DNA of 62,538 nucleotides, the filler included, from Stramenopiles sp. TOSAG23-2 (Eukaryota): the NCBI GenBank assembly GCA_900128395.1. It is 8 parts of 8 records of this genome, joined end to end, with 100 filler letters (N's around TTAATTAATTAA, not from the genome) between each part and the next. Parts side by side here need not be neighbours in the genome. Positions count along the whole stretch, not along the records: positions 1 to 26,313 come from LT649437.1; 7 more parts are not named here. One strand, written 5' to 3'. Made by a program: the position numbers and the translations under genes. Each line of letters starts with the position of its first letter. The stretch's first letter is position 1. The notes beneath the pieces are model-generated. The model made no database searches. It saw nothing but the letters and a program-made list of their open reading frames with translations, and was not told the DNA's origin. Below are positions 573-57,448 of the stretch, in pieces.

Positions 573-3500
573 CTATTTCCCCCCTTTTCCTTTTTTCCCT
601 CCTTTTTTCCCTCCTTTTTTCCCACCTTTTCCTCCTTTACCATTTTTCCCCCACTTTGGCTTTCCACTATGCCATTTGTTCTTCGTATGTTGATTATTCG
701 GCTTATACTTTTTGTGTGAACCATTATTACCATTATATTTTTGCTTACCTGGCTTATTATTATAATTATTACTACCATCATATTTTCGCTTACCTGGGAT
801 ATTATTCTTACTATTATGTTTCTTAGTTATAGGAAGTTGTCTTGGAGCAATCATATCTATAATAGCATTTACACCGGGGTTGCTGGCATTGTCTTCAGAT
901 GCAAATTCATCGATCGAAATGTGCCCATCTTTATTTTTGTCCAGGTTTGTAAACAATATATCCAAACATTGAATTGAAAATTCTGACATATGCCCATATT
1001 GAGCAATAAACCCCTTTTCCAATTCTTTCTTTGATAATTTGCCATCACTATCGGTATCTAAATAGTTGAAGAAAATTTTTAATTTATCTACACGATTATT
1101 GCTGCTTACCTGATCAGCAAAATAACGAAACAAATTTAACACATCTTCCACATACACAACATCAACACCAGCCGATTTAGCCGCTAGTTCGAAGTATGAA
1201 TTAATATCCGCATCAGAAAGTTTGGCAGTATTACGTTCATACACCCTCATAATTTTATGGAATTCCTCTCGAGTCATAGAATCTTTCTGTGTTAATTGTA
1301 TATGGTTTTGGAGAATTCCAAAAACTTTATTTAAAAAATCAGTATTAACATTTGTATTCGCCATGAAACTTAACATTGCACCAGACAAATCTGCATCATT
1401 TACAAAGGAAGTCCCATTATCAACTTCCATATCACCACTGCCGCTATTGCTATTGAGACTATTGCTTCTGCTTACACTTGAAGGATTCCTAATAATAAAA
1501 GATTTATGAAGATTCCATTATCAACTTCCATATCACCACTGCCGCTATTGCTATTGAGACTATTGCTTCTGCTTACACTTGAAGGATTCCTAATAATAAA
1601 AGATTTATGAAGATTCTCACACCATGTTGTCATGTAATCATCACCTTTACAATCTTCTTGTAATAACTTGATAATATTTTTTAACGTTACTGATGCTTTT
1701 TCCCAATTGTCAGGACTATTGGCGTCGTTCCATTTTGCAGCTGCTGTTCCTTTCTTTGGATAAATTTTCCTAACGACAAAATCAACCACTTGCTGCATTA
1801 CTGACATGGCTGTAGAATTTAAAAACGATCCAGTTTGGCAAAGCTCCTCAATGCTATGTAGACACGCAGTAACTAAAGCCCAATTTACCATAGCAGCCAT
1901 ACCGAATTGATGTTGATAAAATGCATCTGTTTTATCAGCAGTTAGCAATGCATGTGCGAATGCTAGGAACACTTGTACTTTTGTGGCCACACCAATTAAT
2001 TTGTGATTTGTACCTTTGCAAAGGTCGGCAAGCAGTTTAACAGCAATTCTTTGTGATCTGCCATCAAGAGAACCTTTAATTAAATTAATCAATCCAGCCA
2101 TTAGAAAACTTTCCCCAAAAATTTTTGGTTTATTTGAAGGATAGTATAACAACACTCGTAAAAATTTCAATGCAATAAGCTGGTAAGATGGAATTAATAC
2201 GTTGTGTAACATGGCACCGATCATTAAAAATGACTTCTGGTAATTACCTTTCATCACTAAATGTTCACGCGAATCATCCATCTCAGCAACTATTGATATA
2301 ATACGTAATGCTTCTTGTCGAACCCGCAAACTTGATGAGACCATATCTTTTCTTACGAGTTTACTCGCTTGAAAAGATGTTTCATTTGGAAATGACGTCA
2401 CTATTTTGACAAACTCCTCCAGGTAGGCTGGATATTTTTCTGCCCAAGAAGTTGAAGTACGTATCACCAATGAGCCATAAGTATACAACACGTTACTTCG
2501 AATATGATTAATTGCTATTGTATAAGATGTATCATCATCAATGTCATCACCTTCATACTCAGCTGACATTGGACGTTTAGAAGCATGCCCAGATTGATAT
2601 AGTATTCTAACACAATTTTGGATATTATCCCCAGTCATTTTATTCCATAATGCAGAAATAATTTTTGTACCTTCAGTTTTTGCATCCTTGTCAATATTGG
2701 GCGAATTTTCACTGCTATTCATTCCACATATGACTGCCATGGTCCATGTCGCAGCTTGTAAACATACAAGAAAAGGTATTGGTGTTACATTCGTTGCAAC
2801 TCGTTCTAGACGTCTAAAAAACCAATCATTCAACCATACGAAGTATTCTTTTTTGCACATCATATCCCGTGCTTCTTTAAGGTAAGAAGCAAATGATCCA
2901 GGTAATCGGAGAAGATGCATGAATGCCATCCTCAATTCTTTTGGCACGTTGTTATCGGCATCCCAAATGTTGTATTCATGTGCAAGATACGTATCCACAA
3001 CGTTAGCTGTGTATTGAAACACATCGTCGACTCCCTGCGCTCGTATCATCTTGTGAAATTGACCTTTGCATAGTTTACTTGTATCATTATCATCTCTTGC
3101 ACCATTTAATAGCATAGGAAAATTTGGCCCAGTCGCATAGTAATTTAAAATGTTAAAGATTTTGCTCAGACAATTGTAATATCTTTTTCTCGTCAAATTG
3201 TTTCCTTCGCTTCGACCACCAACTTCTTCGTCTTCTGTTTGAACTTTAGCTAACGCTTCCATAATTTCCTTGACTTTGTTTAGCAAGCCCTCCGTCATTT
3301 TGTGCTGATAAAATGAATAAAAAACCTTTTCCAAATGCCTTCTTAATTGGAGTTTAAAATCACGCAATGGCCCAATTATATCCAATAGTTCGAAAATACG
3401 TAAATAATTATCTAATAAATTATTCAATGTATTTGTATCCTTCGCATTTTGAAGTTGATCAATATTAAATTCAAATGCTGCCACGTCATCTTTCCATAAT

Positions 3501-4110: not shown

Positions 4111-6143
4111 ATGGCACCACGGAAACCTGCATCGAGCAAGGTGAAAAGAGGAAGAAGAAGAAGGAGTAGCCGCGTTGCAAAAAAAGATAAAAAATTAAAT
4201 GATGATGAACAATTCGCCTCGAAGACAAATAATGATAATGATATACTTGCTGATGAGGAGCTATCTTTTTTCAATAAAACCGTTCGTGCTTTGTCACCAC
4301 GTTCAATTAGTAAACGTTTGCGTTCCATCTCTCCATTATTTTCAAGTAGTGGTAGAGTAAATCGAGCTGAATCAGCATTAGATAATGTTGAAAAGCAAAC
4401 TGAACAATTCAACACGGAAGATACGTTTTGGTATGCAGTGAAATTTGGACAACGTGATAATTTAATGAATTTTATTGAAGGAGATAAAGATTGTTTACCG
4501 AAAGAAAAGCGTGTCGAAGCTAATGAAACTTGCTTAGAAGAGCGCGATCCAGTAGGCGCAACTCCGTTGCATTTACTTTGCCTTTTTGGCCATACTTCAC
4601 TTGCAATGGAAATCATATCAAAGTACCCTGAACGTGGATTAGATATGTATGATTTAAAACAATCAAAACAAAATGATGATAATGATGATAATACTGAGAA
4701 CAACAAAAAACCAACTTTATCACCTTATCATGGAGAAAATTGTTTGCATATAGCAATTGTAAAACATGATATGGAATTAGTCAAATGTTTAGTTGAGAAT
4801 TGCGGTGAAGAATTGTTTAAACAGGAAACTATTGGTTCTTTTTTTTTACCTTCCGCGAATGATGCTTTTGACAATAATGATAATAACGATCATGACGATA
4901 AAACAGTTTATTTTGGTGGCTTTCCATTAAGTTTTGCAGTTGCTTCCAATCAACCAGAAATCGTAAAATATTTGATAAACGAAGGTGCTGATATTACAGC
5001 AAAAGATTCTAGTACATACGCATTTGGCAATACAGCTATGCATATATCAATCTTATACGAATTACCAGAGATGTACGATTTGTTGTTGGAATTATGGCAG
5101 GAAAATAATATTCCAGGTGAATTCAGTTCACAATTAAATAAATATCAACAAAGTGCATTGACCTACTCTGCTGCAATTGCTAAAAGTGGTAAAATGTTTC
5201 GACATATATTACACAAGCAAAAAGTAGTGCAATGGAATTATGGTCCAGTCACATGCGTAGCATATCCTTTGAAAGAACTCGATGTCATGCAATTTAAACC
5301 CGGTGATAGAAAAGGATGCTTGGAATATTTTGTAGAAAATGAACATTTTGATTTAATATCGGATAAACTTGTATTGAATTTAATTGATAAGAAATGGAAA
5401 TGCTTTGCAGAGGAAGAATTTAATTTACGATTTTGGCGAACGACAGCATTTATTTGCTCCATTTTTTTGGTTAGTATGTTGCCTCGTATGGAAGAAAGTA
5501 TAGACAACAACACAACACTTTCTTTTAATTCTTTTTTTCAAATATGGAGCAATGGCTCCATTAGTAATTATGTAAAATGTAGATATATATTTGAAATTCT
5601 TGCAGTTTTACTAGCCTTTTATAAATCCCTTGAAGAATTGAAAGAAATGCATTTTCATGGCGTTTTGCAACATTTCACCGCGCAAGGAGCTGCTGTTTTT
5701 GAGAATGTTGCAAGTGCATTTTGCATTGTGACTGTATTTGCACTCTTTATTTTCCGCGTTTTTTTAATATTGAAGCTCATGAAGAAGATGCAATATTGGC
5801 AAGTTTAAATATTGCAGCATGGATTAATTTGTTATGGTTTTTTGTTGGAATGTCTCCCGATATTGGTATCTTTGTTATTATATTGCATAAGATGATAATA
5901 TCAGATTTAAAAACATTTTCATTGATATCATTTGTTTTTTTAGGTGGATTTTCCACTGCATTTCATTTACTTGGGGAAGAAGAAGGTATTGGTAGCTTGG
6001 GTGCACAAGTTGTTGATATGATGGCAAATATATTAGGTGATTTCGATATTTCATCGTATAGTAGCAAACGATACCCACATGTTGCCACTGGCTTAGCGTT
6101 GCTATATATATTCTTGTTACGGTACATACGAGTATCATATTAA
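4111..6143 (+). CDS. TRPV-like transient receptor potential cation channel (ankyrin repeats plus TM segments); frameshifted near 5760 and 3'-truncated
   Basis: TRPV-type motifs YHGENCLHIAI, GSFF, YFGGFPLSFAV, GNTAMHI, WNYGPVTCVAYPL, LIDKKW. S4-S5 and pore region (IGIFVIILHKMIISDLKTF...F..GFSTAF...LGDFD) lie in the -1 frame ORF 5721-6143. End of S6 and the TRP box are missing. Confidence 0.8.
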
Positions 6144-6490
6144 AAATTTTCATCGTTAAAAATAGGGACATAGAACATATTATCAGAAGAGTAAAAATTA
6201 AATAAAAAAATATACGAGTATATGAGAGATGCATATAGGTTTTTAGAAATATACGCGTTGTATACAATATACGAGTAACATATACGTATATAATATATCA
6301 TATATATATCATAAAATGTATAACCATTTAATTATTAAAATATATGCATATTATTTTTTAAATTTCCTGTATTTATTAAAAATATTACTTCTCCTCTTAT
6401 AAAACTTAGATTTTAAACCCCCATTCAAAAATTATTAATAAAATCCTCATTTTTTTTACGAAGCGTCAGTAAAAAAATCACACACCACAC

Positions 6491-6811
6491 TCATTTTAAA
6501 CTACTCCATTCACCAAGCTTTTCATAATTTTGAACTTGCAAATAACGATCAGTTGGATGATCGTTATTGATTTCTAAAATCCAATATCGTTTATGCTCCA
6601 TTGCAATTTTTGCTTTTTTGATTTGTTCTTCTAGTTTTGCTTTTTGTCGACGTAGTTCCTCCATTGTTGGAAGCTTTACAGTAAGACTACTATTATTCAC
6701 TTTAATTAATTGTGGTGACAAGGATATTGTTTTACTTATAATAGGCCTTACAACTGAGGAAGATGGTTGTACTTCAACACGTACTTTTGATGTTGATGAG
6801 TAGGAGGACAT
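6491..6811 (-). CDS. Small hypothetical protein with a coiled-coil segment
   Basis: ATG at 6811, one nt after the upstream stop codon; MEELRRQKAKLEEQIKKAKIAME helix; no recognisable family. Confidence 0.35.
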   Translation of the reverse strand: MSSYSSTSKVRVEVQPSSSVVRPIISKTISLSPQLIKVNNSSLTVKLPTMEELRRQKAKLEEQIKKAKIAMEHKRYWILEINNDHPTDRYLQVQNYEKLGEWSSLK

Positions 6812-6812
6812 G

Positions 6813-9041
6813 TTAATTGTGATTCTTGTTGTTGGATGGATGAGTATTGTAACAATCATAACTAATTACATCTGGTATTTTTTGAAATCCTAATTTAAAT
6901 GCTTCACTTTCATCATGTAAACGAAAATCATTATTATGTGGATTTAGAAATAATGGATTGATATTTAATTTTGAATGCATATCATACCCATTGCTTATCC
7001 ATGATTTCCAATTACCAACTGGTGTAATTTCCATGTTATTTATTAAATCAATTTCAAATTTTGGAGAATATATTAAATTGTAATCAGATGTATATGCATA
7101 TAATGTATGATTAAATGGTGTTTTTGCGCTTATCAATTTTGATCGATTATTTGTATACCAAATAATATTTTTCAAGAAGGAATTATTATATGAATGATGC
7201 TTCAAAAACGTACCAACATCAGATTGCCCTGCATCATAGTATCCATAACGACCTTTTTTTGGAAAATGATTTGAACAATTGATAAATATATTATTTCGTA
7301 CCATATTATCTTTACCGCCATGGAAAAACACACCACCATTCACATTTGTATTGACAACATTACCTTCGACTAGAAATCCGCTTGCATCATTATCTAAATA
7401 AATTCCCCAATTGAAAAATGGCGTTAATATTGTTCCATTTGGATTTGTATCAAAACCAATTACGTTTTTCACACAATTATTTTTAACAATTGTATTTGTA
7501 GTACCACCACCGATGAATGATAACCCACCTAAATCACGTGTTTTTTCTCCTAAATTTTCTAAACGATTTAATTCAACTATATTATGAATGGACATTCCAT
7601 TTGGACCATCATTTGATCGAATAGCAATACCCCATCGACTACAATTTGAAATATTGTTTTCTTTAATATGTATATAACTGCCGCTACTAACTAATACGCC
7701 ACCCGCACTTGCTAATATTTCCCCAACGCCATCTATTAGATTTGATTGAACTAAACAATGTCGTGCTTGACTTGTTGTATTACCAGTAAATATGATAGGA
7801 CTTTGTCCAATTTTATTAAATGTATTCTTTACAATATTAATATTAGTTGATTGGTTTGTTATATGAATACCACCACTGCCTAAATGATGAAACAAACAAT
7901 TTGTAATATTAATATTTTTAGATTGGCTAATGTGTATACTTGAATCTGATGGCATGCCTATACTTGATGGTAAAATATTAAATCCTTCTTGAAAGCCATT
8001 TGATATATAATCTACATCAATCAAATTTAAATTACGTATTTCATAATTTTGAACATTTTGAAAAGAAAAGATATAATCATTTTGTGGGACATATACATTA
8101 AGTTGTGATTGTGTGAATGGCAGTTTATCATCATCATCATTGTTGTTGTTGTTGTTGTTGTTACCAATTGTAGTAGATATATATAATTGTTTCATCTCAT
8201 AATCTAAATACCATCCATTACCACCACTATCACTTAACGCTTCGATAAAGGAATATATATAAAAACGATTGCCTGGTCGTATATGACAAGAAAGTGATGT
8301 ATTTGTACAATGTTTTGTATACATTAAAAAACATTTATAATCAGTTGGACATAATGGGTCCTGACTTTGTTCAATAATTGATGCTTCAAAATTAATCCAT
8401 GATAATGTTGGAAACATATGCACTTTCGCATTTTTTAACTTTGAATTTGCAATACTTTTCGATTTGATTTGATTTCGTGAGATACCAATTAAAAATGTAT
8501 TATTACCTTTATAAACATTTACCTTTGCATCAACAAATAACCAATCATCCTTTCCTGGAGGATATCGAGCATTTGGTAACAAACCATTTTCATTACGTAA
8601 TGTTTTAAAATCAATAATTTTTAAGTCATTGTATTGTTTTAAATCGCATACATATGTTGTAGATGATGATGGCATCATATCGATGATGTCCGTTTTTTGA
8701 AAGCAATCGTGTGGTATTTTATATGCTGTTGATACATTTACATTAATATTATTATTATATGCTTGATAAATTGTTTTTCCTCCTGAATTATTATTATTAT
8801 TACCGTGAAAATCAATTCCATTTTGTACCGTATATTGTCCTTCAAGAAAATTAACAATTATATCATCAGCAGTATATATTTTACGCATATTTGTAATTAC
8901 AGTTTGCACATGTTTTATGGTCTGATATGGTTTTAATATGGTGCCAGTTCCATCATTATCATTACCAATTTGAGAAGAAATAAAAATTTCAGTGTATGAT
9001 AATTTCTTTGCATCAATTTTGCCATTTACAATGGTTACATT

Positions 9042-9073
<32 letters not shown>

Positions 9074-9125
9074 TCGTCATTGCATTCCAACACCAATAAG
9101 AAGGTATTCGTTTTGTTTGTATCAT
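6813..9125 (-). CDS. Secreted right-handed parallel beta-helix (pectin-lyase fold) protein, putative polysaccharide-active enzyme
   Basis: Poly-Leu signal peptide; GNDNDGTGT..KPYQTI N-terminal motif; repeated N-x-I/G-I-x beta-helix coils; WGIYLDN..SG..VEGN; C-terminal PLF..P...DFRL..ESEAFKLGFQ.IP motif typical of bacterial beta-helix proteins. Confidence 0.75.
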
Positions 9126-9447
9126 GTTTTTATCCTATTGTTCAATAATATTTGTTAATAACAATAATATAAGAATAATATGAAACATCTATATTTTAAA
9201 ATTATGAAAGGAATGTTTACTTCCATATATATTTTTAAGATATATAATGGATATTTTTGTTTCCAATAAATATATTTTTTAAAATAATAAGAATTTTAGT
9301 ATAATCCTGGTATTATTATATATATATTAATTATTATTATTAATAATAAAATATTTTGTTAAATCTACGATTTAATAAAATTATTAATATAAAATTTCTC
9401 TCTCTCTCTCTAGATACACATAACTTTTATATATTCTTTTTTACATA

Positions 9448-10196
9448 TTATCGTCGATTACGCATCTTTCTATATTCACGGAAAATGAAATTTTCATATT
9501 TACTGATCAAATCACGTCCATTACTATATGCAAACCATAAGCCAAATAATGTTCCAGATAAATGTGCAGCATGCCCAATCGTCGTCCATCCCTTTATTAA
9601 TCCAACAACATCAACTGCAGATATTAAAGCAACAACTTGTTTACCACTCATTGATATCATTGGTAAAAAAATAATACTAAATGCTATATTATCATCTTGA
9701 CTCAAAATAGCTGCACATGCAAGTAATGCACCAGATGCACCTAAACCTGGCATTCCCATATGAATAGGTTTACGTATGGTATTGTAAACATTTGCACCAA
9801 AACTAGAAAATGTACCTGCGGTAACATATAATGCTAATAAATCTTCATGTGAATAATTCAATCGTGAAAGTAATATTGGACCAAAACTATACAATGCGAT
9901 TGAATTCAATGCTAAATGTGGTAATGTTGCATGTGAAAATGTAGATAACAAAAGTGCACGAGAATGTACATTGTAAATAGAAGACATAAAATTATGTTTC
10001 ATGACACCATGAAACGTTGGGATTTGATGCATACCAAATATTGCGACGTGTGAAGCTAATATTGAATTTGTAACTGTTGTATTGTCATAAATCGGTTTAA
10101 AATACTCTTGCAAATTATTATTATTACAAAAATTATAAAATCGTCTCCACAATTTATTTGTAGTATTATCCAATTTTTCACTTTTTACAACAGCTG
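9448..10196 (-). CDS. Rhomboid intramembrane serine protease (PARL/Pcp1-like), 5'-incomplete
   Basis: FSH...HLALN, catalytic GASG and TM6 GHAAHLSG; the frame is open to the junction at about 10197 with no ATG. Confidence 0.8.
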
Positions 10197-10819
10197 CAAA
10201 TTCAATATTAGCTTCACACGTCGCAATATTTGGTATGCATCAAATCCCAACGTTTCATGGTGTCATGAAACATAATTTTATGTCTTCTATTTACAATGTA
10301 CATTCTCGTGCACTTTTGTTATCTACATTTTCACATGCAACATTACCACATTTAGCATTGAATTCAATCGCATTGTATAGTTTTGGTCCAATATTACTTT
10401 CACGATTGAATTATTCACATGAAGATTTATTAGCATTATATGTTACCGCAGGTACATTTTCTAGTTTTGGTGCAAATGTTTACAATACCATACGTAAACC
10501 TATTCATATGGGAATGCCAGGTTTAGGTGCATCTGGTGCATTACTTGCATGTGCAGCTATTTTGAGTCAAGATGATAATATAGCATTTAGTATTATTTTT
10601 TTACCAATGATATCAATGAGTGGTAAACAAGTTGTTGCTTTAATATCTGCAGTTGATGTTGTTGGATTAATAAAGGGATGGACGACGATTGGGCATGCTG
10701 CACATTTATCTGGAACATTATTTGGCTTATGGTTTGCATATAGTAATGGACGTGATTTGATCAGTAAATATGAAAATTTTATTTTCCGTGAATATAGAAA
10801 GATGCGTAATCGACGATAA
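10197..10819 (+). CDS. Inverted second copy of the rhomboid protease, 5'-incomplete
   Basis: Translation identical to the C-terminal 194 aa of the minus-strand copy. Confidence 0.7.
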
Positions 10820-10850
10820 TATATAAAAGAATATAAAAGTTATGCGTATC

Positions 10851-11126
<276 letters not shown>

Positions 11127-11205
11127 ACACCCCAAATATTATGTATTGACATTCCCTATATAAACAAAGTAACTTATGCACATACAAAAGATAAAAAAAG
11201 AAACC

Positions 11206-11273
11206 TTCCGATGCCGGGATTTGAATGTGGGTTTCCTGTGTGAAAGGCAGAAATGCTGACCAACTACATTGGA
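11206..11273 (-). pseudogene. Degenerate, intron-less tRNA-Glu(UUC) copy
   Basis: Minus strand TCCAATGTAGTTGGTCAGCATTTCTGCCTTTCACACAGGAAACCCACATTCAAATCCCGGCATCGGAA; 5-nt deletion in the D arm and a broken T stem; flanks shared with the gene at 11431-11577. Confidence 0.85.
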
Positions 11274-11417
11274 TGTTGTTAAAAGATGCTTCACTTCTTG
11301 AAGCAATAAAAAAATAACTCTGTAGAATAATTTAAATTGTCAAATCTTTTTCCACTGCAAAAACATTGTTATAACACTTACAATTCAAACAAAGTAACTT
11401 ATTCACATACAAAAGAT

Positions 11418-11424
11418 AAAAAAA
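11418..11424 (-). terminator. Pol III-type T7 terminator of tRNA-Glu
   Basis: GGTTTC-TTTTTTT directly after the discriminator base on the minus strand. Confidence 0.65.
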
Positions 11425-11430
11425 GAAACC

Positions 11431-11577
11431 TTCCGATGCCGGGATCTATATATATTTATTTTATGATTTATTGTTAGAAAGAATATTTTTCATTTTTTTT
11501 GTTTGTTTTGTGTACATACTCGAACCCGGGTTTCCTGCGTGAAAGGCAGAAATGCTGACCAACTACACTACATCGGA
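11431..11577 (-). tRNA. tRNA-Glu(UUC) with a 74-nt insert in the T-loop (exon 1 11577-11520, exon 2 11445-11431)
   Basis: Joined exons give a full 73-nt cloverleaf: acceptor TCCGATG/CATCGGA, D stem GTGT/GCAT, anticodon arm TCTGC-CTTTCAC-GCAGG, variable AAAC, T arm CCGGG-TTCGAAT-CCCGG, discriminator A. Confidence 0.92.
11446..11519 (-). other. GT-AG (spliceosomal-type) intron inside the tRNA-Glu T-loop at 58/59
   Basis: GTATGTAC...TTTCTAACAAT...ATATAG; CTAAC at 11477-11473, branch A 28 nt before the terminal G; the boundaries cannot slide. Confidence 0.8.
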
Positions 11578-12007
11578 TGTTGTAAGATGCTTTACTTCTT
11601 ATGAGAAATGTGAAAAAAATAGTATATATACAAATAAAAAATTTTCTTCCGAGTTAGAAATAGGGTTCTCACCTTCGAGAAGTTTTTCCGTGATGCTATT
11701 CCTATACTAACTTTTCAAAACAAACGAACACCAAACACAACCACACAAAACTGAAGAATGATGCCGGGCACACAATACCATATCAACAACCAACAATCAT
11801 ATTATTATAATGCACTAATCATCAAAAAAACTCGCAAAAAAAATAATCGAACACTTCACATACACATAGTCACAGTCTACTACACACAATCATCTCTCTG
11901 TCTGTCTGTCTCTTTCTATCTATCTATCTACATACACATAACGTTGTATCAATTTGGATAATTTTGAAAACATAAAACAGACACATTAAAACCAACAAAT
12001 AACAACA

Positions 12008-14389
12008 ATGGCATCTATTGCAAATAATAATGAAAAAACTGTATTAGGTATTGATATTGGTACGACTAAAATTACTATATCATCTATTACTACAAACCCA
12101 ACAACTTTAACAAAACCATCAAATGACTTTACACCTATAGTATTATCAAGTGATACTGGTAGTAAATCCATTCCACCATTAGTTGGATTTCGTAACAAGA
12201 AAAGAAATATTGGGGAAACGGCTGCGTTAGAAGAAAACTCAAATGCAAAAAATACAATTAAAGATTTGATTTATTTTCTTGGTACCAATAATAATAATAT
12301 TGACAACGTCGTTGCACCAAATAAATTTCGTCAATTTCGACTTGTCAACGACGACAACAATGTATCATATGCAGTTATTGATTACAATAACAAAGAAACA
12401 CAATTGCGATTGGAATTGTTAATCTCTATGTTGATACGAACTGCAAGAAGTTACTCAAAAGCAACTAATATCGAAGGCGTATCTATTACTGTACCAGTAT
12501 CATATACAGAAGGTCAAAGAAAAGCACTTATTGATGCAGTACATATCAGTGAAATGAAACCAATGCCATTTATCAATACCTGTGAAGCTATGGTAATCAT
12601 GTTTGAAATAAAACATCGTGATCGTATTGTAGAAGCATGTAATGGTAGTGAAGAAGAGGAGAGGAATAATTACAATGTAATTTTATTAGATATTGGACAT
12701 ACTACTACTAATCTGGCTTTAGCACAATATCAAGTTGATAATAATAATAATGTTACTAGTAAAATTATTTCATCGGTTGGTAAATCAAATTTAGGTGCAC
12801 GCAACATTGATGATGGATTATTCAATGCAGTGACATCCATATTATCATCTAAGCATAAGTTAGATGTTAAACCAGCATCAAAAGTTGGTTCTAGAATATT
12901 AAGACAATGTAAAAAAGCAAAAGAAATATTGTCAACGATTGGTGAAACAAGTATTGTACTTGAAAATTTACCTGGTGATATTGATGCAAGAATACCAATA
13001 TCAAAATCAACATTGGAAGAATCATCGAAATATGTAGCAACAGAATTGGAAGCTTTATTCCAAACTTTATTTGAAAATTGCTCCTCTGTCGTTTCCAAGG
13101 AAAACGTGCATGTTATTGAAATTAGTGGTGGTGGTGTACGTATACCATTTATTAAAAAGGTAATTGAAAATGCTGTTTCAACAACAACGGCAAAGTGTCA
13201 AACGACATTGAGTCCAGAAGCATCCTCAAAAGCAGCTGCCATTGTTGCTGCTAATGCAATTGTGGCATCAAATAATGGTAGTAATAATAAAGATAAAGAA
13301 GTGGAAGAAGAGGAGAAGGTGAAGAAGAAAGAAGAAGAAGAAGAAGAAAAAGAAACAGATGAAGCAAAAGATGATACAGAAGAAACAACCAATGTTGCAG
13401 ATACAAAAGATGAAGAAACACCAACATCGAGTAGCATTATCACCAGCTTGGCAAATTTAGTAATAGATAATGAGAAATATGCAATTGGAAATATGAAAGA
13501 AAATGAAATAGAAATGGCGAAAAGCCTTGAAATGATAATGCAATTGCAAGATAATGCATTAGCAGAAATTGGGGATGCTAGGAATTCATTGGAATCATAT
13601 ATATATGAAATGCGAAGTATTTGTAATGGAAATACAGGAAGTCAACATTACAAATTGTTAAATAGCGAGAAATTATTACCATTGCTAATGGAAGCGGAGG
13701 ATTGGATGTATGAATCAGATGATTATACAAAAGAAAATTATGTGGAAAAATTAAATGAAATTACTACTGTATTTCAAGAAACATCTCCGGGATATTTTGA
13801 AGCTGTTGAAAAAGAACGATTGAAATTGGAATCAGAATTGAATGAGGGTGAAAAAATAGGCGATAAAGAACGTGCGTTGGAAAGTGAAAATGCGGAAGAT
13901 GATCATGATCGTAGAAAATTGAAAAAAGATGATCGTATGCGTTTAGTTGTACGGAATAAAAACGAAGGGACGGAATTGTTTAAAGGTGGCGTATATAAGC
14001 AAGCTGCCATACGTTATACGAAGGCGTTGCAAAATTGTACAAAATTCTTTGATTTATCAGAAGCTGATGAAAAAGAAGTGAATGAAATTAAAGTAAAATT
14101 GCATTTAAATATTGCAATGTGTTTTTTGAAATTGAAAAATAATCATAAAGTTATTAACAATTGCACAGATGCATTAGAGCTTGATAACGACAATGTAAAA
14201 GCATTGTTCCGTAGGGCAACTGCATATTACAACGAAAAAAAAATTAAAGAAGCAAAAAGTGATTTAAAACGCGCTGTAAAACTTAATCCAGAGGATAAAG
14301 CAATTAAGAAATTAACTGCAAAAATCGATGTAGTTATTAAAAAACAAAAAGCAAAAGAGAAAAAAATGGCAAAACGTATGTTTGGTTGA
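12008..14389 (+). CDS. Hsp70/Hsp110-like nucleotide-binding domain and lid helices fused to an FKBP/Cyp40-type TPR domain
   Basis: VLGIDIGTT, LDIGHTTT, ISGGGVRIPFIK, ARNSLESYIYEMR; C-terminal TPRs KNEGTELFK...LHLNIAMCFLKL...NVKALFRRA. Confidence 0.85.
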   Translation: MASIANNNEKTVLGIDIGTTKITISSITTNPTTLTKPSNDFTPIVLSSDTGSKSIPPLVGFRNKKRNIGETAALEENSNAKNTIKDLIYFLGTNNNNIDNVVAPNKFRQFRLVNDDNNVSYAVIDYNNKETQLRLELLISMLIRTARSYSKATNIEGVSITVPVSYTEGQRKALIDAVHISEMKPMPFINTCEAMVIMFEIKHRDRIVEACNGSEEEERNNYNVILLDIGHTTTNLALAQYQVDNNNNVTSKIISSVGKSNLGARNIDDGLFNAVTSILSSKHKLDVKPASKVGSRILRQCKKAKEILSTIGETSIVLENLPGDIDARIPISKSTLEESSKYVATELEALFQTLFENCSSVVSKENVHVIEISGGGVRIPFIKKVIENAVSTTTAKCQTTLSPEASSKAAAIVAANAIVASNNGSNNKDKEVEEEEKVKKKEEEEEEKETDEAKDDTEETTNVADTKDEETPTSSSIITSLANLVIDNEKYAIGNMKENEIEMAKSLEMIMQLQDNALAEIGDARNSLESYIYEMRSICNGNTGSQHYKLLNSEKLLPLLMEAEDWMYESDDYTKENYVEKLNEITTVFQETSPGYFEAVEKERLKLESELNEGEKIGDKERALESENAEDDHDRRKLKKDDRMRLVVRNKNEGTELFKGGVYKQAAIRYTKALQNCTKFFDLSEADEKEVNEIKVKLHLNIAMCFLKLKNNHKVINNCTDALELDNDNVKALFRRATAYYNEKKIKEAKSDLKRAVKLNPEDKAIKKLTAKIDVVIKKQKAKEKKMAKRMFG

Positions 14390-17300
14390 GAGTATATATA
14401 TTGTGAATCAGTATGTGATACACTACGTCCTTCAAGAACTATTGTTTCTTTTGGAATGTGGGAAATATGATGAGTTTGTTTTCCTTTGGTAGCGGCGTCG
14501 TTACTATTATGAATTATATCTTTCCTCTTTTCCGTATTCTCAAAACTAACATTACTGCCAACATTTCTAGGTCGAATCTCTACCTTTGACTTAGAAGTGG
14601 AAGATGATTTTTTACAAAATTTTTTACAAAATGTTTTACTTGAAACGAATCCATATCTGCATACACCAATGTACAAAGCATTTTCAAATACTAATGTACA
14701 AAATCCAATAAGAAAAACCGTTGCATTCAGGGTAATCAAAATATAGGCCATAAAAGTATCCTCATATAAACCATTGTCTGGATCGTCCATTTTCAATATT
14801 AATCCACCCAATAACGTTAATAATAATTGTATGCTTGCAAAAATCTGTAACCAATTGTCGGCTGGCTCTTTATATGGTTTTTTATCATTTAGATAAATCA
14901 CATAAAATTGACAAACAAGCAATCCTGATAACACTTGAGCGGATGTCCCAGGCGCTAATAATACCAATCCACCTGTTAATAATGCTTTTCGAAACATTTC
15001 TATTAACTCCCAATACCAAACATCATCTTCATAGGCTTCAAATAATGAGCCATATTTCATAATTATGGATTCCTTCAATATTTCCAATTTATCATTGTCG
15101 TCGTGTGGTAGTGTCAACATTTGACAATTGCATTTTTTTTTAACTTTTTTAATCTTCTTCACCAATTCTTTATTGTTCTTCTTACTTGCAGTAATACTTG
15201 TAGTAAAATCACCTGGAACATTAAAATAAACGCTTCTTCCCTTTCGCAATTGTATTGTTTTGCGTAATTTATTCAGTTCTATGCGATGATTAAAATTAAG
15301 CATTCGTTTATCTGTCGTTTCTAATAATTCTACTTTCTTTTCATCTGCATTATTATGATCATAATTTATCGCGGCAATAACCTTGCGATAGTGTCTTAAT
15401 AAAAGATATAAAAGTATAGGAATTCCTAATATATAAATTACGACAAATATAATTGCATACATTACTGCAATTGTATGTCTACCTTGCATACATTCAACAG
15501 AATAATCAGCAGACAAATAAAATTCATTTTTCGCACCAAGCTTTTCACAACGTAAAACACGAAATATACGAACAGTAAGACCTGGATAAATCAAAAATAC
15601 CATAAACATAAATGATGTTGTTGCACGGTCAAAAATTATATTCCATGTATTTTTTTGCTTGTGCTGTTTTGTATGTTTTCTACATAGTGATCTTGTTTTC
15701 TTTATGCATATTGCAGTGAATGCGGCAAGTAGTAAAATGGCTAAAAATATCGGCAGCACCATCATATGCATATAGAAAGCATCTAAAAATGGTACTGTTA
15801 AATTACAAACATCAACTGTACCAAATATAATTTGCATATCAAAGTTAATAAATGCAAAAGACCGAAAATACGTTTGAAATTGTTTTGGCCATGGTACATC
15901 AAACGTTAAATCTAAGTTGCTTAAAACTTGAATATATCCAACTACAATACGAAGCTGGCGCACTATGCGCTCTCTTTTTGACGATATGCTTTCATTCATG
16001 TGTTTATCAACTTGGCTATTTACTCTGCTTGATATTTGATCTTTTACTTGATTTTGTATATTCTCGTTTATTTCTTCAATCACATCATTGTATGGATCAC
16101 CAAGTGCTTCTTCCATAGCTTCATCTAAGATAGTTTCTTTTACAAAATGTTCTTCCCGTTTTTGTCGCACACGTTTTGTAGCACGCGCAGCACGTATTTT
16201 TAGTTTTGCATAAAAATCAACATGTTTTGTTGGGTTATTATTATTTTTTGTCAACTTTTTTCTTTCTTTCTCTGGTTTTTCCTTATGATTATCTTCATTT
16301 TCCTTTTTCTTATTATTACAAATCCAGCAATTACAACATGATATATCCAAGAGAAATAAAAGTATTACAATGTAAATGAAAAAAACAATACTTTCTATTA
16401 AAACGACCATACTATCACTATTTTGAGTACCTTCACAAATTTGGCAAATTGCAACTTCACCTTGTTTTTTATATCCAGTTTTACATACTTCGCATAATGG
16501 ACCTTTGTGGGAGTCAAAGCATTGGGTTTCATTCTTTGCAGATCCTCCCACACAATAGTTTTCATTATTACATTCAAAAAAATCTGTACTATGTATTGAA
16601 TTGCGCCATGTACCTTTCGCAGAGACTATTGATTCTAATGTTACTCCTAATGTGTCGTCACAATTGGAATTATCAGGGCATATTAAACAGTCCGAATATG
16701 GTGGCAAATAGTAGTTTAAAGAGCAAATGCATTTCCTACCATCCTTACCACGATTATATGCGCCTAAGAATTCACCTAGTCCACAACCGGTAGATGTGAC
16801 ACTTAAATCAAAGGATATTGCAGCAAGATTTTTGTAAACCATATCATCACTATCAACAACATGTTGCAATTCGCAATTGTATGAAACCGATTCTTTGGCA
16901 TAAAATTGACCATCGTCAGCAGCTGAAATTTGTACAGTTTGTGCAATATAATAATTATTAGTGGCAAAAGAAACCAGAGGAGTCATGACTTTGCAATTTT
17001 TATTGGAACTGATAATGTTAATCTTTACATCCAATGCTTCAGGGGCTGTTGTAAGTTTTAAATTGTATTGAAAAATCCCACCTTCCGATACAAACCCACC
17101 ATCTAGTGGAAAGCCAGATATACCAGCCGCTACGTCATTACTTGTAACTACTATGGTTTTACTGCTTTCTTGGTTTGAATATTTAGGATCTGTACTATTA
17201 CTTTTTATAATTAAATTAAACGTTGTGCCGGCTCCATAATTACCTTCTAAAGCTTTCACGACGATAGGATTGTTAATGTTCTTCCAATCATCATGGCCTT

Positions 17301-20300
17301 TTGATATTGTAAATGAGGTTGGGTTTACACTAATTAGACTAGAGACAATTGAAATCGTTATTGTTACATTTTCCATTGGTTTTGATGCAATTCCAGTGAA
17401 AGTAAATGTTTGGGATTGACCAGCTTCTTCCAATTGTATCACATTGTTGTTTGCCAAAACAATACCAGCGGTGTCATCATCCGTTACTTTGGTAATCACC
17501 GTACTATTTGTTGTTTTGCTGAAAAATATATTGTCTAATGTCTGAATGAAGTATAAAACTTCAAACAATTCAATATCAATATCATTGTCGATAGAGTCAC
17601 CACTTGCACTTAGCGTAATTAACTGTGGTATATCCCAATTATTTATCGTAAACGTTACTATCGATGGACTTAACATGATTTTTAACGGCGTTTTCAAACG
17701 CGGAGAAGTGATTTTAGAGTAAACCACCACAGAGTCTGTAGGTTTTGTATCTAATACCATTCCATACGATGTATTTGTCCCCTCTGTAATACCCAGAGGA
17801 CCAACAACTTTTAACTTGTACTCAAATCCACCACCTTGTTTTTGCAATTGTAATTTAACATCAGCATTATCATTGTTAATCGCGGTAATAGTAAATGATT
17901 GTGGGGAAGAATTTGCATCCTCATAAACAATATCTGAACTTGTAACTGTATGTGTTAATGTACATGTAAAGGAAGTGGCATCAGTTCCTTCATCCACATA
18001 GTTATCTTCGACATCTACAGTAACTTCAAAACTAGAATCATAATTGCTGAGGGTAAATATGAAAGAAGATTGTAACAACATGCATTTTGCATCAGAACTT
18101 GCAACTGATACTAGAACATCAGATGCTTCCGGAGCATCTGTTAAACTAATTATGTACGTATATGTTCCGCCTTCCGTAACTTGTTGCGGAGCTGGTATGT
18201 TCACACTACCTACTGCTGTATAGCAAATTGCAACGGAATTGCTCCTTAAACCTGACACAATTAATGTAACATTTTTTTGCAAACAAGTCCCTGGTACACC
18301 AGCTTCAGTGAATGTACATTTCGCATTGTTGTACGAATGGCGGATAGGATTGGGACATGTAGTAACTTGATTAGTTTGAATATCTTGGATTTCAATTGTT
18401 ATACTCGCATTTGCAAATTCAGATCCATTTAAAATTAAATCACCACCACCTAATGTTGGAGAAACTTTGGTAATGGATGGTATTTTGTATGAAAATGTTG
18501 TTGATGAAGCTGCATCTTGTGTTCCAATTTTTATATTTACTGGAAGATTTCCTCCGCTTCCTATAGGTGTTATTGCTGCAATCTCATTAGCAGAAATCCA
18601 AGTTATATTAGTACATGACTGGCCGTTTATTGTAAGTGAAATGATTGAAGATTCACTACCAAAATTTGTACCAGTGAAAGTAGTTAATATATCTCCACGG
18701 GAGGTACTTGGATTTGGAGATATGTGTGTAATGGTTGGAGGTGAATATGAAAATAATTTTGCTACATGTTGCGTATTTGATTTACCATTTGCAGCTGTTA
18801 CATTAATTACATGATTTGCACCATCACTAGGTGGAAGGGTGCATATTATTTCAGTGGAAGTCCATGATGATGGAGAGCAAGTTTTACCTCCGATATCAAT
18901 TTTATTTTGTTCGGATCCAGTTTGAATCAAATATTGCCCACTAAATTTTATTACTATGGCAGTTGTTGGACATTTATTTAAGTGGTTGTATAGACCGTTG
19001 TCGTTTATACAATTTGACGACGTTATGTTTGTGATGTATGGGTATGATGGATCTGGATCGCAGCGGACACCTAACGAAGATGGGCTTTCATCAGCACATT
19101 CTGTACCAGTTATTCCAACTGTGATGTATGGGTATGATGGATCTGGATCGCAGCGGACACCTAACGAAGATGGGCTTTCATCAGCACATTCTGTACCAGT
19201 TATTCCAACATCTAGACACATATTACCGCTAGTAGCGTATGAGCAAGATTTTGCTGCCGAAATCTCATTAAATGGAGTCACTGATGCAGGATATGAAAGC
19301 AATGCACCCATATTTACACGGATGTAAATCCCCTTATCATTTGTTAGATCAAAGTTTCCCATGTTCATACTAGAATCTTCGAATGTACACTCCACTATTG
19401 CCAGTGTCACTGACTCGGGATAGTCATTATAGGTCCTGATATCTATACTATATGTATTACCAGTTCCCGGTGGAGCATGGCCTATTACTGTGACATATTT
19501 TAGAATTATGTAACCAGGTACAAGATATAGATCCCTAGATTTCCCGTTTTGTATTTTGTTTCTAGCTATTATGCTATTGGTCATAATGACTTTACCTAAC
19601 CCGGCTCCTTCAATCGAAAGCCCACATGAATATGGGTAATCATATGTGCAGAGGTTGTCCGACACTTCTATGTCCTTTATTAAAATCGTACCCGTATCTC
19701 CAATCATAGTTACACGCAACCCGGCATGATCTTTCCCTGTGTTCCTGGAGAAGATACAGTTACTAATAGTTAGTGAAACAAAATTGTTTAGGCCATTATC
19801 CTCAATAGCCGCGTTCAGGCCACCACCACCACCTTCGGGGCATGAGTTTTCACTTATAATATTATTATGTATCTTTGTGATACCTGCAGTACCAGCAGAA
19901 ATTCCCCCGCCATAAAATTTAGCCCTATTTTTGGTAACAATGCAGTTCTGCAAAGTAAAATGATCAGCATTCCCGTTTTTTGATAAAAAAACTCCTGCAC
20001 CCCCACCCGAATTTGTATATCCGTGTGTCAATATTAGGTTATCAAGTGTAAAAGATTCCGAATTTAAATTGGCATCATGAAAGTGGTAAAATAATTGCAC
20101 CCCTACGTCTGAGTCCGGAACTTCATCCCATCCACCATCAATTGCAGGTTTTGTTCCAGTAGAATCTGGAATACCTGTAATTTTTAATGCACCCCGAATA
20201 TGAATAGTAGACGTTACTGAACAATTTACAGAAATTGTGTGTTCTCCAGTATAATATTTGTTACCACTGGTCCACGTACTACCATCGGAATTTGTCGATG

Positions 20301-26313: not shown

Positions 26314-26413
26314 NNNNNNNNNNNNNNNNNNNNNNNNNNNNNNNNNNNNNNNNNNNNTTAATTAATTAANNNNNNNNNNNNNNNNNNNNNNNNNNNNNNN
26401 NNNNNNNNNNNNN
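26314..26413. other. Artificial contig linker N44-TTAATTAATTAA-N44; also at 52712-52811, 54350-54449, 55988-56087, 57626-57725, 59264-59363, 60902-61001
   Basis: Identical 100-nt spacer with stop codons in all six frames. Confidence 0.97.
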
Positions 26414-52711: not shown

Positions 52712-54036
52712 NNNNNNNNNNNNNNNNNNNNNNNNNNNNNNNNNNNNNNNNNNNNTTAATTAATTAANNNNNNNNNNNNNNNNNNNNNNNNNNNNNNNNN
52801 NNNNNNNNNNNTGTTATTATTATTATTATTATTCCATCTTGGATCTGAACTATGTGATGCAAGTGAAGACATTTTTGTGTATATATATATATATATATAT
52901 ATTGGTATATATTATTATTATATTATGATATAAGGTTAGAATTAAATCTATTATTGAATGATATATTATATATATATATATATATGTATATAGTTCAGTT
53001 CTATGTTTATCATCTGTATAACTTAACTCATAATATTAAAAAAGTTTTTAGTGTGTTTATATATGTCTATATGTCTATAGAATAGTTGCAATGTGCCAAT
53101 CCTGGCAATCCTGGCAATCCTGGCATGATATGTTCTTCTTTGTTGATCGATTTTTTTTTGCCAATATTAATTTTTACACTTTACAATGCTAGTCGGTATT
53201 ACAGTGCTATGTTCCTGCTAGGGGAATAACCCTAACGATAACATCGATCGGCTGGAACGATTTGTTGTTTCACCCCTAACATATGCATCTAGTAAATCAG
53301 CAAAACAGTCTTCATTTGATTTTGATACCTTCCCAACCCTAACATCACTACCTTCTGGATATTTCCAACAACAACTGTAAGTTCTTATAAATTCATCTTT
53401 ATATAGTTTCTTTTTCATGTCCCCATGTTGTTTTTCACTACCATGTATTGATATTAAATGTTGTACAATTCTTTTTGTTAATTGTGGTTTCTGACACGAA
53501 GTACCTTGAGTTTTTGAATTTAGGAGTGAAAATTATGGCATATAATGTTGGTGCAGCAAAGACAACTGATATACTATATGCACCAAAATCTGCTTCACGT
53601 CGTAAAAAAGAGTTAAATGCCAATGGGAAGCCTCCAGTTCATCGTAGGAGTGGTAATGTCCATCATCACACGGACCATTTACTTCACCACCAGATGTATT
53701 AATAAATGATACTGCTGCTGAATTGAAAGATATGTACAACCATGAGATATCCCAGCAAATCTTCCAAACTGCCTGCACAGAACACTACAATACATGCCTG
53801 GCATGCCAGGCATGGAAGAACACAGTTTAGTAAAATGGAACATAAACAGGTAAATAGCACATAATGCTATTTATAACCTAATAGTAATATTCCTTTCTCT
53901 GTGGCCACATATTTCAACATAGAGATCCCATCTATATATAGTACATATATAATATATACACATATACACGTACAAACAAAACAACACATTTATCAAAAGT
54001 TATACATCTACAATCACATATACTATAAATCACAAT

Positions 54037-54349
54037 ATGTCTTCCTTCAGAGATACTTCAAAAAAAAAGAAAAAAAAGAAAGAAAAGAAGAAGAAAGATG
54101 GAAAAAAAAAGAAAAAATCAAGTCATAAAAATAAATCATTAATAGATGAAGATGACGATAATAATAGTAAAAGTAATAAACGAAAGAAAGAAATTGAAGA
54201 GGCTTTAAAAGAATTTACAAATTCAAATGAATTAGTAGATCCTGATGCATTCGATGCTGATTTTCAAGATGGTACCAATGCTTCAGCAAACACACCAAAT
54301 AGTAAATATGATAGTAGTAATATTGATAATTCAGAATTTGGACCTTCTG
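54037..54349 (+). CDS. 5' fragment of a Lys-rich nuclear or nucleolar protein
   Basis: ATG followed by poly-Lys and acidic tracts, running into the linker; weak resemblance to the AATF/Bfr2 N-terminus only. Confidence 0.5.
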
Positions 54350-54792
54350 NNNNNNNNNNNNNNNNNNNNNNNNNNNNNNNNNNNNNNNNNNNNTTAATTA
54401 ATTAANNNNNNNNNNNNNNNNNNNNNNNNNNNNNNNNNNNNNNNNNNNNTTTACTTGTTATTGTTTTTGAATGATGTTGGTTACGATTCTTTTTGAAGAG
54501 AATAAAATAGTAATGTTTGATTTGTCTTGTTGTTTCTTTTATGTTTATCTTGTTGCTGTATTGATGATACTATAACTACATGCAATATATACGGTATATA
54601 TAATAATCATATGTTGATTATATTTGAAAATCAATAAATTAAATGTATTTTAGTTATTATTATTATTATTGCTTTATATATTGTATGGTTGGTATTAATA
54701 TGAGCGTCGTACGAAGTAAAATACCAGAGGGGGTATAATTCATAAAAAATATAAATATACAAACGTAAAAATTTGTTTTAAAAAAAAATTTT

Positions 54793-55650
54793 TTAGAAAA
54801 GAGGCACAGTTGATTTTTGTTGTTTCAATATTGCTAGTTCCTTTTTCAGCTTCTCGTTTTCTTGAATAAGTTTATAATCTGTTATTTCACTCGCTTTTTC
54901 CTTTTCGTGTGCTGCCTCTTCCTTTACTTTCTTAAACTTTTCTAGTTCACGTGTATTCTTTTCCATAATATTGTTGTAGATCTCCCAAAAATTATTCCCA
55001 TAGTCAGTCAACAATTGTTTGCCTGATTTTATTTCTTTTATATTAGTTAAGCAAATGTGTAAAACCCCGTCTTGAATAAAATCAAGAAAACCCACATTTG
55101 CTTCCCGTTCTTGAGGTCCATCATAATTGTTTATGTCATTACGGTAGTCATTTATGTATGCACCATAACCTCTATAGTTTGACGCATCGCCAGTAATATC
55201 AGGCACACTAGAAGTAGGGTCATATGTGTACATGTATTTGTATTCATTTGAAAGTACATCCTTATCAACTTTAATGTTATATTCAACCTCTGTTACATAT
55301 TCACACACATATTCCAATTTCAATTCATGGATAGCAAGGTCCTTTTTTGCAAAAATACCAGTAATCGATCCATGTTCATAATTGTATGCTGGATCTTCAC
55401 AATCCAACTTTCCCAAACAGAAACTTTGACCATGCTTTGAAAAGGATTGTCTTTGCCATTTCTTCCACCCACCACTGATTACAAAATGATCTTTAAATTT
55501 TCTGGATATGTAATTTTGCTTCTTCTGATTTGCAACCACATTTTGTATAATTTTTTTTGCTTTTTTACTATAAACGTTTTCAGTTTTAATTGAATTACAA
55601 AGTTGTTCGATATGATTATCTTGTGTCCCTTGGAACACAACTTCTTTCAT
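54793..55650 (-). CDS. Divergent SET-domain protein
   Basis: GIFAKKDL...LEYVCEY; DASNYRGYGAYINDYR...ANVGF; IKEIKSGKQLLTDYGNNFW. Confidence 0.75.
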   Translation of the reverse strand: MKEVVFQGTQDNHIEQLCNSIKTENVYSKKAKKIIQNVVANQKKQNYISRKFKDHFVISGGWKKWQRQSFSKHGQSFCLGKLDCEDPAYNYEHGSITGIFAKKDLAIHELKLEYVCEYVTEVEYNIKVDKDVLSNEYKYMYTYDPTSSVPDITGDASNYRGYGAYINDYRNDINNYDGPQEREANVGFLDFIQDGVLHICLTNIKEIKSGKQLLTDYGNNFWEIYNNIMEKNTRELEKFKKVKEEAAHEKEKASEITDYKLIQENEKLKKELAILKQQKSTVPLF

Positions 55651-57212: not shown

Positions 57213-57448
57213 ATAGATTTCCAAAACTCCCCGTGTATTTGAGTATTAATTTTAGTATACTACTTTATGCATATTTGATAGTGAGGTATTTGGATATTAC
57301 AAAAAATCCAAAAATAGCCAAATATATAGTTTGATGAATAAAGTAAGAATATCCGATTGTTTTGGTAATATCCAATATCTCTCTATCAAATATATATAAA
57401 TTAGTATACTATATTAGTACTTAAATTAAACGTCGTTTTGAAATCCAC
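57213..57448. repeat. Imperfect foldback (inverted repeat), about 95-bp arms
   Basis: 57243-57308 matches the reverse complement of 57356-57420 at roughly 80%, with weaker similarity extending outward. Confidence 0.65.

Follow-up and report, generated by a model that had tools for sequence, protein, structure and literature searches.

The 62.5-kb window, by which we mean the whole stretch of DNA analysed, carries on its minus strand at 11431-11577 a tRNA-Glu(UUC) gene that is split in the T-loop, and its sequence is as the initial annotation had described it. The 5' exon (11520..11577, 58 nt) provides tRNA positions 1-58: the 5' strand of the acceptor stem, the D arm, the anticodon arm with its TTC, the variable region, the 5' strand of the T-stem and T-loop residues T54-A58. 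This exon contains an intact A-box-like stretch at tRNA positions 8-19 (11559-11570) and also the B box as far as its seventh nucleotide (11520-11526). The 3' exon (11431..11445, 15 nt) provides positions 59-73, namely A59, T60, the 3' strands of the T-stem and of the acceptor stem, and the discriminator A. Six nucleotides (GGTTTC) after the discriminator, a T7 run at 11418..11424 forms a site resembling a Pol III terminator, and this run is kept in two relatives that share the locus, L001 and L002.

Between T-loop positions 58 and 59 stands an insert of 74 nt (11446..11519), of the form GTATGT..CTAAC..TATAG, which we read as a spliceosomal-type intron on the evidence given below. Its 5' splice-site hexamer, GTATGT, occupies 11514..11519; the hexamer is the same in a third relative, L004, and the independent metagenome X4 lists no difference in it. 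The branch-site motif TTCTAACAAT lies at 11470..11479, with CTAAC at 11473-11477 (insert positions 43-47); the A at 11474, from which 28 nt lead to the 3' end of the insert, is the presumed branch A. The 3' splice site, TAG (11446..11448), contains the single AG of the insert, which is terminal (AG positions within the insert: 73 only) and is also the first to follow the branch motif. The insert consists of 58% A and 26% T, and its longest T run is 3. When 11446-11519 is cut out, ARAGORN recognizes in the joined flanks a 73-nt tRNA-Glu(ttc) with four paired stems and a 7-nt T-loop, the exon junction reading ..GGGTTCGA joined to ATCCCGG..; the unspliced stretch 11431-11577 receives no tRNA call from the same program.

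Tandem copy and neighbourhood

A repeat search found the tRNA unit and its flanks to be duplicated 225-299 nt downstream. This tandem second tRNA-Glu unit, copy B (11206..11273, minus strand), has no interruption at the intron site but is degenerate: it has lost part of the D arm, other bases replace three G's of the T-stem as well as G57, and A4 and A39 cause mismatches. Neither ARAGORN nor Rfam calls copy B in the window. Between the lineages compared below it has substitutions at 5/68 to 6/73 positions and, in addition, 2-7 gap columns, whereas copy A, the gene described above, has 0 differences. Judged by these counts, copy B shows what decay looks like at this locus, in contrast to the unchanged copy A. 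A CT repeat occupies 10870-11122.

The tRNA gene lies approximately 430 nt upstream of a gene for an Hsp70-TPR protein (12008-14389, plus strand) and faces away from it. The window as a whole has a GC content of 27-38% and is densely packed with long uninterrupted ORFs, among which are those for EF-hand, ankyrin, rhomboid, Hsp70-TPR, IPT/TIG-TRP, sedolisin, PP2C, WASH, LRR/LNR and collagen proteins. A scan of the window for mRNA introns by ORF joining gave 16 candidates, 13 of which lie inside open frames; the three plausible candidates belong to only two sites, one at 37597.. and one at 49536.., where there is a choice of two acceptors. The source is an intron-poor eukaryote. The runs that contain the stretch are marine metagenomes and metatranscriptomes, and searches with the Hsp70-TPR, WASH and sedolisin proteins returned environmental relatives or scattered protists at 50-55% identity; the source is an uncultured marine protist.

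The same locus in related lineages

Metagenomes were scanned with a 32-nt query from the 5' exon, which stops just short of the insert and was chosen to catch interrupted and uninterrupted genes alike, and five loci were obtained (L001-L005). L001 and L002 share with the window the locus, its flanks and copy B, and their tRNA-Glu gene is uninterrupted. L004 is again the same locus with the insert present, its contig ending 62 nt into the insert. L003 is another locus, in which an uninterrupted gene with identical exons is followed by tRNA-Gly(GCC). The initial annotation had proposed looking for an intact, uninterrupted tRNA-Glu(UUC), and such genes do exist, both at this locus in sister lineages (L001, L002) and elsewhere (L003).

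Over 2.2 kb of upstream flank the window and L004 are 99.2% identical, and the other five pairs among the window, L004, L002 and L001 are 97.4-97.6% identical. The locus is thus represented by three nearly equidistant lineages, approximately 2.5% diverged, of which one only carries the insert. The alleles differ by exactly the GT..AG unit, without duplication. The window, L004 and X4 carry this unit; L001 and L002 lack it, their sequence at the site being GGGTTCGAATCCCGG. These natural alleles bear out the earlier statement that the ends of the insert are non-slidable and that it has no target-site duplication.

One might suspect that amplification or misassembly produced the insert in the source assembly, as a 650-nt inverted duplication of 99% identity lies nearby (9432-10835) and the window disagrees with all four aligned runs after approximately 14400. 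Nevertheless, the insert recurs in the independent X4 and in L004, which stems from another data set, each with variants of its own, and we regard this explanation as refuted and its probability as next to nil. X4, a DNA metagenome, spans 11125-11766 at approximately 99% identity with no joint that skips the insert; the one change within the insert is at 11483 (intron position 37), and no change is listed for the exons.

The substitutions are unevenly placed. The 5' exon shows 0/58 differences in all six pairs among the window, L004, L002 and L001, and the 3' exon shows none among the window, L002 and L001. Between the window and L004 the intron differs by 7/57 substitutions plus 5 gap columns (12/62 aligned columns), and the 5' flank by 2/100. 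Two 18-nt blocks of the intron are identical in L004 and the window: one opens the intron and contains the donor hexamer, and the other surrounds the branch motif. Conserved exons and splice signals around a diverged interior had been named beforehand as a pattern that would support function, and this pattern is seen among the window, L004 and X4. The 0 exon changes between the window and L004 are not significant alone, given the short time since insertion; we estimate that approximately 1.4 would be expected under neutrality at the rate of copy B. Since two sister lineages have no interruption at this locus, and the gene in L003 is likewise uninterrupted, the intron is a lineage-specific, polymorphic feature of one gene copy, and it is probably young.

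A second interrupted tRNA-Glu gene

The fifth locus, L005, belongs to a different organism and lies on a contig of 47% GC, with flanks that differ from those of the window. Its tRNA-Glu differs at three positions and has intact exons. An insert of 68 nt, GTAAGT..TTCTAACAAT..CAAACAG, separates T-loop positions 59 and 60, one base past the site of the insert in the window. Excision of these 68 nt yields a perfect 73-nt tRNA-Glu(UUC) by ARAGORN, and two other choices of acceptor mispair. The longest T run within this intron is 2, and a T run of at least 10 follows the gene in the same place as the T7 of the window.

Homology between the two introns was assessed by alignment. The score of 47 was reached by 207/2000 shuffles of the interior and by 411/2000 shuffles that kept the branch motif. 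A common origin is not supported by these alignments, and the introns appear to be either independent or too diverged to tell. The 10-mer TTCTAACAAT occurs once in the 62.5-kb window, counting both strands, and is found again in the introns of L004 and L005; an intron-poor genome would be expected to have an extended branch consensus, which this shared 10-mer may represent. Because the intron of L005, at 59/60, is a second and unrelated-looking one, the comparison suggests that the T-loop of tRNA-Glu(UUC) is a recurrent, tolerated intron site.

Nature of the insert

The initial annotation had taken the insert to be of spliceosomal type, and donor, branch and acceptor all agree with this reading in both the window and L005. 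The donor is GTATGT in the window and L004 and GTAAGT in L005. An A was looked for 10-50 nt upstream of the 3' splice site; the presumed branch A lies 28 nt upstream in the window and 23 nt before the intron end in L005. The 3' splice sites are of the form YAG, with TAG in the window and CAG in L005, and in each intron the tRNA is restored by cutting at exactly the AG that comes first after the branch motif. The product in both is a perfect tRNA-Glu, and the natural uninterrupted alleles show exactly the predicted junction. We calculated the joint chance that a random 74-mer starts with GTAWGT, has CTAAC 10-45 nt from its end and ends in a YAG that is the first AG after CTAAC. This chance is 1.2e-7 at the local intergenic composition and 1.8e-8 at the composition of the insert itself. 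The reading of the insert as a spliceosomal-type intron is strongly supported by these sequence signals together with the comparison of alleles and loci.

Introns of nuclear tRNA genes are ordinarily of another kind. The bulge-helix-bulge (BHB) motif has two 3-nt bulges that contain the cut sites, with a 4-bp helix between them, and its eukaryotic position is 37/38. The insert could be imagined as an ectopic tRNA intron that is cut by the tRNA splicing endonuclease and sealed by a ligase, its GT..AG and CTAAC being coincidental; ectopic introns in D- and T-loops are present in some eukaryotic lineages. The pairing required is lacking, as had been claimed earlier for the window: the canonical register pairs 2/4 in the central helix, 2/4 in the outer and 0/4 in the inner helix, and that of L005 pairs 1/4, 4/4 and 1/4, respectively. 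Among 144 relaxed registers, 0 have a fully paired central helix in the window or L005. The best relaxed register of L005 does reach 3/4 (central), 4/4 (outer) and 4/4 (inner), although with bulges of 2 and 4 nt and misplaced cuts. In addition, the coincidence of three splice signals, at approximately 1e-7, would have had to occur twice independently. We therefore consider cleavage by the endonuclease to be very improbable.

[quoted passage not shown] The inserts measure 74 and 68 nt, too short for either, as the initial annotation had pointed out, and no such Rfam family was found; a group I or II intron is excluded by size together with the lack of an Rfam match (11300-11720 at E<=10; L005 at gathering thresholds). 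Introner-like families typically consist of many near-identical intron copies per genome, often with TIR or TSD. No further copy of either intron was found in the 62.5 kb of the window and the 25 kb of loci, the L004 orthologue aside, and the remaining matches in the window and the five loci were of low complexity and 23 nt or less. Searches of genome-contig and viral-contig collections gave 0 matches to the pattern GGTTCGA, 0-1 nt, GTAWGT, 15-45 nt, TTCTAACAA, and likewise 0 matches to a 30-nt exon pattern.

Detection by standard tRNA tools

It had been suggested that standard finders could miss such genes, and the window, L004 and L005 were indeed missed. ARAGORN reports 0 tRNA genes and Rfam 0 families at gathering thresholds in the whole 62.5-kb window, and neither calls a tRNA in L004 or L005; the uninterrupted genes are called by both, with 66.7 bits each in Rfam. 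At E<=10, Rfam finds in 11300-11720 only a partial tRNA match of 15.6 bits, against a threshold of 29, and a chance snoRNA match. Counts of tRNA genes in protist genomes and metagenome bins may accordingly be too low.

A scan for split tRNAs, as advocated in the initial annotation, was run on the window and the five loci. In silico excision of 2001 GT[AG]NGT..AG candidates led to 15 ARAGORN matches across the junction. Five of these are the two real cases (two matches in the window and three in L005, alternative acceptors counted), and the remaining ten fall on tRNA genes of L001/L002 that ARAGORN already finds uninterrupted. The scan thus recovered the cases of the window and L005 and produced no further split tRNA in the window and the five loci, where only tRNA-Glu(UUC) is affected.

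Transcription and processing

The gene has the architecture of a Pol III unit, with an A-box-like stretch, the first 7 nt of a B box, the T7 run after the gene and a short leader. Neither intron contains a T run of 4 or more, compared with 42.5% T in the local sense-strand intergenic DNA. We propose that the gene would be transcribed by Pol III in the manner of an ordinary tRNA gene, giving a precursor of approximately 147 nt. The spliceosome would then remove the 74 nt from this precursor, as it does with the Pol III-made U6 of fission yeast, and splicing would rebuild the T-loop from T54-A58 and A59-T60 to give a normal 73-nt tRNA.

One difficulty concerns the internal promoter. The B-box consensus is GGTTCGANTCC; counted by eye against this consensus, the unspliced gene retains 8/10 specified positions in the window and 7/10 in L005, the intron taking B-box positions 59-62 away. 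By this comparison, the split of the B box may weaken or abolish Pol III transcription.

The difficulty would vanish, together with that of splicing an uncapped transcript, if the tRNA were released by RNase P and RNase Z from a longer Pol II transcript, of which the intron would be an ordinary Pol II intron. The RNA contigs of three runs, X15, X16 and X19 (polyA, cDNA and 'other' metatranscriptome), cover the mRNA of the neighbouring Hsp70-TPR gene, in which they show no splice joint, and place no piece on 11431-11577; the nearest piece is 18 nt at 11626-11643, upstream of the gene. That polyA/cDNA contigs cover the neighbour and not the tRNA gene speaks weakly against a Pol II host, since contigs cannot show absence. 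The complete Pol III architecture, with A box, T7 terminator and short leader, speaks against it as well, and we judge a Pol II host to be improbable, if less so than cleavage by the endonuclease.

Origin and meaning of the intron

An exact GT..AG unit without duplication points to one of two routes of gain or loss. The first is a spliceosome-linked route, in which the unit would be gained or lost by reverse splicing or through a spliced-RNA intermediate. The second is gene conversion from an intron-bearing paralogue. Recent gain is favoured over loss, as copy B is intronless in all lineages, although this is not decisive, the three nearly equidistant lineages being unrooted.

The initial annotation had also inferred a possible dependence of this lineage's tRNA maturation on the spliceosome. 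Such dependence is not established: uninterrupted genes with identical exons are present in L001 and L002 at the same locus and in L003 at another, so that the cell may not need the interrupted copy. The interrupted gene might then be a dead allele. A spliceosomal intron, whole or in part, would have entered a tRNA-Glu(UUC) copy that was redundant, whether through reverse splicing, through gene conversion or as filler DNA, breaking the B box and the T-loop; the copy would be neither expressed nor spliced and would have had no time to decay, and uninterrupted paralogues would supply the tRNA. Several observations agree with this explanation besides the uninterrupted alleles and paralogues themselves. 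The insert is confined to one young clade (the window and L004), the conservation of the exons since insertion is not statistically significant, no RNA contig piece falls on the gene, and the locus already has a decaying copy in copy B. Nevertheless, random inactivating insertions should be rare and should occur at varied positions, whereas two of the three independent loci that carry the exon pattern (those of the window and L005, the third being L003) have complete intron signals in the same loop of intact genes. In addition, the donor, the branch motif and the acceptor were kept while the interior changed at 12/62 aligned columns, and both introns are free of T runs of 4 or more in a T-rich setting. 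A dead allele is a serious alternative which we nonetheless consider rather unlikely.

The reading that we favour, and hold to be somewhat more probable than all the others together, is a genuine U2-type spliceosomal intron (GT-AG, with a CTAAC branch) in a nuclear tRNA-Glu(UUC) gene of Pol III type, young and polymorphic, from which splicing is inferred from the sequence signals. A broader proposal can be put forward only tentatively, as we are slightly inclined to doubt it: introns of this kind would form a fourth class of tRNA intron, in which the spliceosome of a marine protist group matures Pol III-made pre-tRNAs, such introns land repeatedly in the T-loop of tRNA-Glu(UUC), and gain or loss of the exact GT..AG unit takes place within 2.5% divergence. 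If true, this would be a natural and datable instance of spliceosome-mediated intron transposition into a non-mRNA gene. At approximately 2.5% divergence, the alleles with and without the intron are a natural case of unusual clarity on which models of intron gain and loss, namely reverse splicing, cDNA-mediated loss and gene conversion, could be tested.

Eukaryotic nuclear introns have been divided into those handled by the spliceosome, by the tRNA endonuclease and by IRE1, with tRNA introns cut by the endonuclease only, according to the introductions of two articles (PMC12530127, PMC10275265). A spliceosomal intron in a tRNA gene would, if true, cross the divide between the spliceosomal and the endonuclease classes. 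[quoted passage not shown] The initial annotation knew of no established case of a spliceosomal intron in tRNA, and in agreement with this we found no report of one in the openly available full-text articles searched. The consulted parts of a 2023 tRNA review name the spliceosome once, as a contrast, and make no mention there of ectopic introns, introns at noncanonical positions or T-loop introns.

Comparison with known systems

Ectopic tRNA introns, which lie outside position 37/38, occur in Cyanidioschyzon merolae, in nucleomorphs and in Archaea, where they are cut by the tRNA endonuclease at a BHB. The intron described here resembles them in that it interrupts the gene outside the anticodon loop, at a site (the T-loop) that is included among theirs, and in that standard tRNA finders miss it. 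It differs from them in that no BHB can be drawn and in that GTATGT/GTAAGT, CTAAC and YAG stand at spliceosomal spacing.

The closest parallel is found in some fungi, Schizosaccharomyces pombe among them, whose U6 snRNA gene contains an mRNA-type intron (Tani and Ohshima 1989, 1991, cited in PMC5855946). The fission-yeast U6 is a Pol III transcript (PMC5855946) whose splicing has been shown experimentally, and a title in the reference list of that review indicates that Schizosaccharomyces U6 introns contain a match to the B box. As in S. pombe U6, a short GT-AG intron with a branch site lies in a small ncRNA gene of Pol III type, in a highly conserved and functionally central part of the RNA, with an interplay between intron and B box. 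There are three differences. The first is the host: with a tRNA as host, an explanation by reverse splicing into an RNA at the catalytic centre is not directly applicable. The second concerns the B box, which the window intron splits and does not carry, and the third concerns splicing, which is here inferred.

Spliceosomal introns have further been described in the U2, U5 and U1 snRNA genes of Rhodotorula hasegawae (PMC5855946) and in rRNA genes (Bhattacharya 2000, cited in PMC5855946). They share with the present case a spliceosomal intron in the gene of a structural RNA, but none of those hosts is a tRNA. The ncRNA hosts listed in this 2018 review on U6 are U6, U2, U5, U1 and rRNA, without tRNA, and the determinants of intron insertion into ncRNA genes are called unclear there (PMC5855946). 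Our comparison suggests that tRNA would be a new host class for spliceosomal introns in ncRNA genes.

According to PMC11146597, introner-like introns that are short and lack both TIR and TSD may owe their transposition to the spliceosome, and introns have been reported to transpose in experiments. Unlike introners, the 74-nt sequence has no second copy in the window or the 25 kb of loci beyond the L004 orthologue, and its target is a tRNA gene and not a protein-coding one. Like introner-like introns, it shows presence/absence polymorphism, is non-coding and shorter than 200 nt, forms an exact GT..AG unit without TSD and occurs in an aquatic microbial eukaryote.

Neighbourhood of the tRNA-Glu locus

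The second, degenerate tandem tRNA-Glu copy (copy B) was compared in the window and in L001 and L002, metagenome contigs that carry this locus from sister lineages. The L002 orthologue (1413-1485, minus strand) is still called by ARAGORN and Rfam (44.3 bits), and its acceptor stem carries a compensatory change, in which A4 pairs with T; in place of this T the window and L001 have C. The window and L001 copies are each broken, in differing ways; copy B has thus decayed, or been kept, to differing extents in the three close lineages.

At lower window coordinates than the tRNA locus, a 650 nt inverted duplication of 99% identity (9432-10081 and 10186-10835) carries a copy of the same 194-residue rhomboid ORF in each arm, and is followed by a (CT)n tract of about 250 nt (10870-11122). 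In the corresponding neighbourhood of L001 and L002 the rhomboid is single-copy and a tRNA-Gly(GCC) is present (L001 5388-5458; L002 978-1048), which the window lacks. The window's arrangement reflects either genuine rearrangement or chimeric joining within the source assembly.

The tRNA-Glu(UUC)–tRNA-Gly(GCC) linkage occurs at two different loci, that of L001 and L002 and that of L003, a metagenome contig that holds another locus and in which the pair lies at 6588-6658 and 7228-7300; the Rfam scores are identical. The two genes share a strand in L003, and have opposite orientations in L001 and L002. These observations suggest that the Glu–Gly gene pair is dispersed in this group.

Further structural differences and repeats

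The L001 alignment covers window 9445-10205 and then, after 448 nt, jumps to 4110-1516; thus, this contig lacks about 5.3 kb of the window (4111-9444), which comprises an ankyrin ORF and a β-helix ORF. At window positions ~14398-14403, the match ends in contigs from all four runs compared (three RNA and one DNA), and beyond this point the contigs continue as non-window sequence. A 793-residue plus-strand ORF and a 2053-residue minus-strand ORF overlap at 14227-14389. This pattern points to a misjoin or a structural variant in the window. The 2053-residue ORF, an IPT/TIG-TRP ORF, contains a perfect 90 nt (30-codon) tandem duplication at 19030-19209.

Elsewhere, 44 nt N-masked stretches occur in pairs every 1638 nt across window 52712-61001 (seven pairs from 52712), with one further pair at 26314-26413. 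The pairs were read as marking a tandem array of ~1.6 kb units; the stretches at 26314-26413 and those recurring from 52712 lie in the filler between records. The ORFs of the ~1.6 kb units (52712-61001) include SET, LRR/LNR and collagen-repeat proteins.
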